Below, one piece after another: positions 38,953 through 41,518 of a DNA stretch of 64,000 nucleotides (the stretch's first letter is position 1; each line of letters starts with the position of its first letter). Position numbers and translations under genes: made by a program. Under the pieces are notes generated by a model. That model did not search any database and was not told where the DNA came from. It saw only the letters and a list, made by a program, of their open reading frames with translations. The DNA lies in the NCBI RefSeq assembly GCF_013315695.1, contig NZ_CP054353.1; one strand, given 5' to 3'. This DNA is from Escherichia coli. Its GTDB lineage: Bacteria; Pseudomonadota; Gammaproteobacteria; Enterobacterales; Enterobacteriaceae.

Positions 38953-40677
38953 ATGCCGCGTGGCCTGGAATTACTGATTGCACAAACCATTCTGCAAGGC
39001 TTCGACGCTCAGTATGGTCGATTCCTCGAAGTGACTTCCGGGGCGCAGCAGCGTTTCGAACAGGCCGACTGGCATGCTGTCCAGCAGGCGATGAAAAACC
39101 GTATCCATCTTTACGATCATCACGTGGGTCTGGTGGTGGAGCAACTGCGCTGCATTACCAACGGCCAAAGCACGGACGCGGCATTTTTACTGCGCGTCAA
39201 AGAGCATTACACGCGGCTGTTGCCGGATTACCCGCGCTTCGAGATTGCGGAGAGCTTTTTTAACTCCGTGTACTGTCGGTTATTTGACCACCGCTCGCTT
39301 ACTCCCGAGCGGCTTTTTATCTTTAGCTCCCAGCCAGAGCGCCGTTTTCGTACCATTCCGCGCCCGCTGGCGAAAGACTTTCACTCCGATCACGGCTGGG
39401 AATCTCTGCTGATGCGTGTTATCAGCGACCTGCCGTTGCGTCTGCGCTGGCAGAATAAAAGCCGTGACATTCATTACATCGTTCGCCATCTGACGGAAAC
39501 GCTGGGGACAGACAACCTCGCGGAAAGTCATTTACAGGTGGCGAACGAACTGTTTTACCGCAATAAAGCCGCCTGGCTGGTGGGCAAACTGATCACGCCT
39601 TCCGGCACATTGCCATTTTTGCTGCCGATCCACCAGACGGACGACGGCGAGTTATTTATTGATACTTGCCTGACGACGACCGCCGAAGCGAGCATTGTTT
39701 TTGGCTTTGCGCGTTCTTATTTTATGGTTTATGCACCGCTGCCCGCAGCGCTGGTCGAGTGGCTACGGGAAATTCTGCCAGGTAAAACCACCGCTGAATT
39801 GTATATGGCTATCGGCTGCCAGAAGCACGCTAAAACCGAAAGCTACCGCGAATATCTCGTTTATCTACAGGGCTGTAATGAGCAGTTCATTGAAGCGCCG
39901 GGTATTCGTGGCATGGTGATGCTGGTGTTTACGTTGCCGGGTTTTGATCGGGTCTTCAAAGTCATCAAAGACAGGTTCGCGCCGCAGAAAGAGATGTCTG
40001 CCGCTCACGTTTGTGCCTGCTACCAACTGGTGAAAGAGCACGATCGTGTGGGCCGAATGGCGGACACCCAGGAGTTTGAAAACTTTGTGCTGGAGAAGCG
40101 GCATATTTCCCCGGCATTAATGGAATTACTGCTCCAGGAAGCAGCGGAAAAAATCACCGATCTCGGCGAACAAATTGTGATTCGCCATCTTTATATCGAG
40201 CGGCGGATGGTGCCGCTCAATATCTGGCTGGAACAAGTGGAAGGTCAGCAGTTGCGCGATGCCATTGAAGAATACGGTAACGCTATTCGCCAGCTTGCCG
40301 CCGCTAACATTTTCCCTGGCGACATGCTGTTTAAAAACTTCGGTGTCACCCGTCACGGGCGTGTGGTGTTTTATGATTACGACGAAATTTGCTACATGAC
40401 GGAAGTGAATTTCCGCGACATCCCGCCGCCGCGCTACCCGGAGGACGAACTTGCCAGCGAACCGTGGTACAGCGTCTCGCCGGGCGATGTTTTCCCGGAA
40501 GAGTTTCGCCATTGGCTATGCGCCGACTCGCGTATTGGGCCACTGTTTGAAGAGATGCACGCCGACCTGTTCCGCGCCGACTACTGGCGCGCGCTACAAA
40601 ACCGTATCCGTGAAGGGCATGTGGAAGATGTTTATGCGTATCGGCGCAGGCAGCGGTTTAGCGTTCGATTCGTATAA
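38953..40677 (+). CDS. aceK: Isocitrate dehydrogenase kinase/phosphatase
   Basis: 574 aa [45 protein letters not shown]...; ends ...[11 protein letters not shown]. Confidence 0.93.
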
Positions 40678-40693
40678 ATCAGAGGCGAAAAAG

Positions 40694-41518
40694 TCAGCGC
40701 ATTCCACCGTACGCCAGCGTCACTTCCTTCGCCGCTTTAATCACCATCGCGCCAAACTCGGTCACGCGGTCATCGGTAATACGTGAAATCGGTCCGGAAA
40801 TAGAAATTGCGGCAAACGGTTCACGGTGCTCATCGAAAATACACGCTGCAAGGCAACGTAGCCCCAGCGCATGTTCCTCATCGTCAAATGAATAACCCCG
40901 TTTGCGCGTTTGGGCGAGATCTTCTTTTAAATGCACAGGAGACACTAGCGTTGCGTGGGTATAGGCATGTAACCCTTTGCGGTGCAGCAGCTTCGTCACC
41001 TGTTCTTCGCTCAGTTGGGCTAAAAAGGCTTTACCCGCACCGGAAGCGTGCATAGGTAATTTACCGCCGATAGGCGCGGACATTCGCATCAGGTGGGTAC
41101 ACTGTACTTGGTCGATAATAATCGCTTCATGATCGCTTTGATCAAGCACCGCCATATTGACCGTTTCGCCAGACTCTTCCATTAGATTGCGCAGGATAGG
41201 GTGAACAATTGCTAACAAATTACGGCTCTGGAGAAAGCTGCTGCCGACCATAAAGGCATGTGCGCCGATTGCCCAGTGTCCCAGTTCGCCAACCTGACGC
41301 ACGAAACCCTGCTGTTGCATCGTGGTTAGCAGGCGGTGGGTCGTGGAATTGGGTAACCCGGCTTGTTGCGCCAGCTCCGTGAGTGCCACACTGCCATTGG
41401 ATTCGGCAATCCACTCCAGTAATTTCAGGCCACGCGTTAAAGACTGAACCTGTCCAGTCGCTGGTGCGGTGGCAACGGCGGGTTTTCTGCCGCGTTTCGC
41501 GGGAATGGGTGCGACCAT
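40694..41518 (-). CDS. iclR: Glyoxylate bypass repressor IclR
   Basis: 274 aa MVAPIPAKRGRKPAVATAPATGQVQSLTRGLKLLEWIAESNGSVALTELAQQAGLPNSTTHRLL; stop is 16 nt from aceK stop. Confidence 0.95.
   Translation of the reverse strand: MVAPIPAKRGRKPAVATAPATGQVQSLTRGLKLLEWIAESNGSVALTELAQQAGLPNSTTHRLLTTMQQQGFVRQVGELGHWAIGAHAFMVGSSFLQSRNLLAIVHPILRNLMEESGETVNMAVLDQSDHEAIIIDQVQCTHLMRMSAPIGGKLPMHASGAGKAFLAQLSEEQVTKLLHRKGLHAYTHATLVSPVHLKEDLAQTRKRGYSFDDEEHALGLRCLAACIFDEHREPFAAISISGPISRITDDRVTEFGAMVIKAAKEVTLAYGGMR

Follow-up and report, generated by a model that had tools for sequence, protein, structure and literature searches.

The 64-kb stretch of Escherichia coli DNA analysed here—called the window in the following—very probably carries the ancestral, uninterrupted Escherichia junction between aceK and iclR, into which arpA was inserted in other lineages, and comes from a genome of phylogroup F. 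The arpA-negative junction as such is a known genotype in routine use for strain typing, and the finding, though correct, is an ordinary one.

The two genes converge (Table 1). As seen from the open reading frame and its translation, aceK stops with TAA at 40675-40677, while the iclR stop TGA occupies 40694-40696 on the minus strand. In RefSeq, the same aceK coding sequence is annotated as WP_001137240.1 in MS 21-1 and MSB1_4I; the placing of iclR follows the RefSeq annotation of identical genomes, and its product WP_000226403.1 is the very protein found in K-12. Sequence, open reading frames, and translations thus confirm what a first, sequence-only reading had described: convergent genes whose stops are 16 bp apart. 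The spacer is identical in SMS-3-5 (phylogroup F), in MS 21-1, and in two of three arpA-negative, yjaA-positive genomes used for comparison. In 14EC020 (phylogroup G), the distance between the aceK and iclR coding sequences amounts to 16 bp, too.

Table 1 Features of the window discussed in the text (positions count from the first letter of the window)
Feature	Position	Strand	Length or product	Basis or remark
yjaA-less filler, 5S rRNA gene to yjaB	33921..34040		120 bp	blastn, K-12 annotation
aceK, isocitrate dehydrogenase kinase/phosphatase	38953..40677	+	574 aa	ORF, translation
AceK.f primer site, forward primer of the 400-bp 'arpA' amplicon	40279..40298	+		exact match
Counterpart of the K-12 2,489-bp arpA segment	40665..40686		22 bp	blastn, K-12 versus window
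Spacer ATCAGAGGCGAAAAAG	40678..40693		16 bp	convergent aceK/iclR stops on either side
iclR, glyoxylate bypass operon repressor	40694..41518	-	274 aa	translation

The sequence-only reading had further noted that arpA is missing between the two genes, and this stands: by blastn, 2,489 bp of K-12 (locus L001, 4266..6754) align to a mere 22 bp of the window. These 22 bp comprise the last aceK codons (cga ttc gta taa, encoding the tail) together with most of the spacer, and alignment with E. albertii and Citrobacter marks them as orthologous and ancestral. Neither ArpA nor the K-12 insert was recovered within the 64-kb window—ArpA gives no significant tblastn match (the best, over 83 aa, has E = 0.098), and blastn finds none for the insert. 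AceK itself ends differently, as had been suspected: the window protein has 574 aa and terminates in ...VRFV, whereas the K-12 protein has 578 aa and terminates in ...VRYGEMLF, precisely the end that the sequence-only reading had given for it. The proposed endpoint inside the 3' end of aceK was likewise right, as blastn and the alignments place the breakpoint within the last aceK codons. Alignment to K-12 and to reference genomes, the check suggested along with these claims, hence yields a K-12 AceK C-terminus that differs from that of the window and a junction that the F and G references share with it.

In K-12, arpA is a gene of 2,187 nt on the minus strand between aceK and iclR; it overlaps the 3' end of aceK by 32 nt, is separated from iclR by 316 bp, and is named espL4 in RefSeq ('type III secretion system effector EspL4'). 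The aceK–arpA (espL4)–iclR arrangement of K-12 and O157:H7 shares the flanking genes with the window, with IclR being identical (WP_000226403.1) and AceK conserved up to ...RQRFSVR. It departs from the window by the extra 2,489 bp, which encode a protein of 728 aa with ShET2/EspL-family and ankyrin domains, by an AceK that is four residues longer and bears the tail YGEMLF instead of FV, and by the 32-nt overlap of arpA and aceK. The Pfam matches of ArpA are to Toxin_15, the ShET2 enterotoxin N-terminal region (E = 1.3e-96), and to Ank_2. With 37.0% G+C, the K-12 segment is set apart from aceK (52.9%) and iclR (54.2%). At the ends of the K-12 insert, no direct repeat of at least 7 bp was found, only a 7-bp inverted match; the insert has no target-site duplication and no terminal repeat, and its annotation holds no transposase or integrase.

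The gene also varies among its carriers. In 2,004 of the 4,109 arpA-positive E. coli genomes, at least 80% of the K-12 arpA query (L001 4300-6445) is covered, and in about half of the arpA-positive genomes 71% of K-12 arpA is matched, in two pieces. The allele behind the shorter form has an internal deletion and bears the annotation 'ShET2/EspL2 family type III secretion system effector toxin' rather than espL4.

The direction of the event can be read from the outgroups. The set comprises 80 listed Enterobacteriaceae loci with one genome per species (E. albertii, Salmonella, Citrobacter, Klebsiella, Enterobacter, and others); E. fergusonii, the cryptic Escherichia clades I-V, and an E. coli representative are not part of it, so that polarity within the genus rests on E. 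albertii and on more distant genera. In none of these 80 loci does an ArpA homologue lie beside aceK, and iclR directly follows aceK in all 76 listed loci that contain both gene ends, with spacings from an overlap of ~43 nt to a distance of ~1.7 kb. Among the outgroup loci listed, the tight convergent layout of aceK and iclR is ancestral for the family.

The junction of E. albertii is like that of the window: the genes are convergent and directly adjacent, AceK ends in SVRFV, and the 15-bp spacer ATCAGTGGCGAAAAG is collinear with that of the window. Three Citrobacter species carry short AceK tails of the same type (RFT or RFA) and a REP-like element in the spacer. The other genera of the Enterobacteriaceae are unlike the window in that they have tails (0-24 residues, in some cases reading into REP elements) and spacer lengths of their own. 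Traces of the old junction are visible in K-12 itself. It keeps the ancestral 'GT.CGGT.T' of E. albertii up to the Tyr codon, which places the left breakpoint at about the penultimate aceK codon, and, again compared with E. albertii, it keeps the AAAAAG run beside the iclR stop. From the outgroup junctions and the foreign G+C content of the segment, we infer that the window is ancestral at this locus and that arpA is a horizontally acquired insertion; it is because of the outgroups that the event, whose direction the sequence-only reading had not fixed, is read as an insertion in the arpA-positive lineages and not as a deletion in the window.

Under this reading, phylogroups B2, F, and G would have retained the ancestral junction, and a foreign, AT-rich segment of ~2.5 kb would have entered right at the 3' end of aceK in the line from which the arpA-positive groups descend. 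The segment would have brought in arpA (espL4), which belongs to the ShET2/EspL family of type III effectors and has ankyrin repeats. It would have replaced ~14 bp, comprising one or two final aceK codons, the aceK stop, and the greater part of the spacer—with K-12 remaining ancestral up to about 'CGG TAT G'. Hereby, the AceK tail would have changed from ...VRFV to ...VRYGEMLF, and the arpA stop codon, on the opposite strand, would have come to fall in aceK sequence. The window genome would accordingly have lost nothing, as it would never have had the insert at the aceK–iclR locus.

Of the 5,426 complete E. coli genomes surveyed, 1,308 contain the contiguous arpA-less junction and 4,109 contain arpA DNA—nearly always as a single chromosomal copy (median one place), with one match on a plasmid and a few genomes with two places. 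The two classes add up to 5,417 of the 5,426 genomes, as would be expected if the locus had two alleles that exclude each other. SMS-3-5 (ST354, F), 14EC020 (ST117, G), and the three arpA-negative, yjaA-positive genomes, whose pattern is typical of B2, all share the 16-bp junction, while arpA carriage was seen in the K-12 and O157:H7 genomes.

It might be argued that arpA was already present in the E. coli ancestor and was lost in B2, F, and G, so that the state of the window would be secondary, resulting from a deletion or from replacement by an allele without arpA. According to the literature, phylogroups A, B1, C, D, and E as well as clade I are arpA-positive (for clade I: PMC10525238), and the carriage in clade I along with most phylogroups speaks for such an early presence. 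Recombination through aceK and iclR could moreover swap alleles in either direction, and ClermonTyping has reported that arpA alleles move horizontally (PMC6113867). Nevertheless, a plain deletion could not restore the ~14 bp of original stop and spacer that are common to the window and E. albertii, none of the listed outgroup species has arpA at the locus, and the base composition of the insert is foreign. An allelic replacement, for its part, would still leave the ancestral allele in the window. Altogether, an ancestral arpA with later loss appears improbable. With an inserted arpA, and depending on the root, the arpA of clade I would call for one of two histories: a gain at an earlier date followed by allelic replacement, or transfer of the allele via recombination in the flanks. 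A recombination barrier, in the sense of divergence raised beside the indel, was also considered and dropped, as mismatches between K-12 and the window, counted in 150-bp bins, form no peak at the junction.

That arpA merely moved to another place of the genome is very unlikely. In favour of it, only 64 kb of this genome are readable, and there are the plasmid match and the few two-place genomes; yet homology to ArpA or to the insert is absent from the entire window, nearly all carriers have a single copy, and the sum of 5,417 out of 5,426 leaves little room for genomes having both the closed junction and the gene. In typing practice, B2 and F are treated as arpA-negative (PMC10525238). The thought that a collapsed or mis-joined contig, or another assembly or sequencing artefact, mimics the junction is close to negligible, given that the identical junction occurs in 1,308 independent complete genomes, including the finished SMS-3-5, and in E. 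albertii, and that both flanking open reading frames are intact and encode full-length proteins in RefSeq.

In strain typing, the Clermont quadruplex PCR includes arpA as its fourth marker (primers in PMC4322292, Table 1); the sequence-only reading had rightly named arpA as a marker of this scheme. The window contains an exact site for the forward primer AceK.f, but no site for the reverse primer ArpA1.r within three mismatches anywhere in its 64 kb, and no 400-bp product is to be expected from it. In K-12, taken as positive control, both primers have exact sites at a distance of 400 bp, which is the published product size. The ArpA1.r site of K-12 (L001 4260-4279) coincides with the codons for ...SVRYGE, that is, with the insertion-specific AceK tail, and hence the 'arpA' PCR in effect scores a difference in the tail of aceK. 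The window is like the arpA-negative genotype of Clermont typing (B2, F, and since 2019 G) in having the AceK.f site, lacking the ArpA1.r site, and having aceK abut iclR, and at the junction itself there is no difference between the two. ClermonTyping performs the same arpA test in silico (PMC6113867); use and distribution of the marker are described in PMC4322292, PMC10525238, and PMC6113867.

For the second marker within reach, yjaA, the result is similarly clear. The 120-bp filler of the window corresponds by blastn to 518 bp of K-12 (locus L003, 7349..7866) that include yjaA, and neither yjaA primer matches the window within three mismatches, which upholds the earlier statement that yjaA is absent. 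The filler contains the terminator hairpin of rrnE and, by eye, a palindrome resembling a REP element. The adjoining yjaB encodes 158 aa in the window (34003..34479, minus strand) compared with 147 aa in K-12; the greater length results from a 3' end that extends into the lineage-specific filler, which makes yjaB a second gene of the window whose C-terminus is rewritten by a neighbouring indel. The filler differs in sequence in SMS-3-5 and 14EC020, and SMS-3-5 has an IS3-family element interrupting yjaB.

The remaining two markers were read in a proxy. MS 21-1 is 100.0% identical over query positions 1-23946, a figure that MSB1_4I and one other genome reach across all 24 kb. The chuA gene lies outside the window; MS 21-1 has an annotated chuA with exact sites for the two primers at a distance of 288 bp. 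The usual place of the TspE4.C2 marker is an alpha/beta-hydrolase gene located between fabY and fdhE, and at this locus of MS 21-1—the only one considered for it—there is no hydrolase gene and no primer site within three mismatches. The Clermont profile of the source genome would hence be arpA-, chuA+, yjaA-, TspE4.C2-, with chuA and TspE4.C2 taken from the proxy. No paper on the phylogroup of strain MS 21-1 was found.

Sequence identities point the same way. Over ~13-24 kb of this one locus, the metA–aceK and iclR–pepE segments are 99.73% and 99.04% identical to SMS-3-5 as F reference (ST354), and 96.93% and 97.96% identical to 14EC020 as G reference (ST117). Identity to the three arpA-negative, yjaA-positive genomes amounts to 96.9-97.3%. 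The genomes Ecol_881, ECONIH1, and RS571 are 99.0% identical over 24 kb; their assignment to ST648 is taken from PMC9174282, PMC8454413, and PMC7143947. The inferred - + - - profile together with these identities supports phylogroup F. Phylogroup G, established in 2019 and not named in the sequence-only reading, agrees with the window in its arpA-/yjaA- pattern and in its junction, but is disfavoured by sequence identity. The earlier suggestion of phylogroup F or a yjaA-negative B2 lineage is thereby borne out and can be sharpened to F by the 99.0-99.7% identity to SMS-3-5.

Some further variable loci of the window may be recorded. Between yjbD and lysC (~56694-60868), a small island is annotated in the identical genome MSB1_4I, consisting of a slipin-family pseudogene, a gene with a nucleotidyltransferase domain split by IS4, and an IS1 copy; in SMS-3-5, yjbD directly adjoins lysC. 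The metH–yjbB spacer (45402-45620 in the window) harbours two small hypothetical open reading frames of ~320 and ~450 nt in the three arpA-negative, yjaA-positive genomes; they are absent from the window, SMS-3-5, and 14EC020. Between pepE and rluF (~48150-54700), the window contains a sorbose-type PTS operon with sorE, components IIA-IID, an SDR oxidoreductase, and a regulator, and such an operon is found between the same two genes in SMS-3-5 and 14EC020.

What the altered end might mean for AceK can be judged from its domains and its relatives. Pfam assigns residues 10-306 of the 574 to AceK_regulatory and residues 310-564 to AceK_kinase. In the 80 listed species, conservation of the protein extends to RQRF(S/C)xR(Y/F), after which 0-24 further residues follow. 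Several of these tails look like read-through into REP elements, for example ...PDKALAPPSGNVRRSA and ETDRRPDKALAPPSGNVRRA, each directly before the stop codon, and in some listed genera the aceK frame abuts iclR or runs up to ~43 nt into it. The crystallised AceK chain 4p69, with 568 residues, ends within the tail region. Since the differing tail lies past the kinase domain and in a stretch that is variable among enterobacteria, we infer that FV versus YGEMLF is neutral and expect no functional change of AceK.

A regulatory consequence of the tight junction is conceivable but very improbable. Without arpA, read-through from aceBAK could run antisense into iclR and lower the synthesis of the repressor, which would form a positive-feedback switch of the glyoxylate shunt. 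In K-12 and related strains, this coupling would have been undone by the 2.5-kb arpA insertion. Such antisense read-through would be possible because the convergent genes are spaced by only 16 bp and no supported intrinsic terminator follows aceK; the consensus scan of the plus strand found no terminator-like site 3' of the aceK stop. If the idea held, B2/F/G and A/B1/D/E would differ in the sharpness of the switch to growth on acetate, with a possible further contribution from the four residues by which the AceK tails differ. For the opposite strand, a terminator of iclR was considered on account of a consensus match at 40716..40695 followed by CTTTTTCG, and was rejected, as the fold of 40670-40730 on the iclR strand (-10.6 kcal/mol, z = +1.04) is no better than that of shuffled sequence.

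The junction finding leaves current understanding unchanged. Of practical value only is the assignment of the source genome to an arpA-negative F lineage that would be close to ST354 and ST648-type extraintestinal strains. For typing, a point seldom spelled out is that the 'arpA' PCR, in wide use, reads the insertion breakpoint in the 3' end of aceK and not arpA itself. For the biology of the species, arpA (espL4) is documented here as a probably acquired gene of an effector family that would have overwritten the 3' end of a gene of core metabolism without apparent damage, because the tail of AceK appears to be unconstrained.
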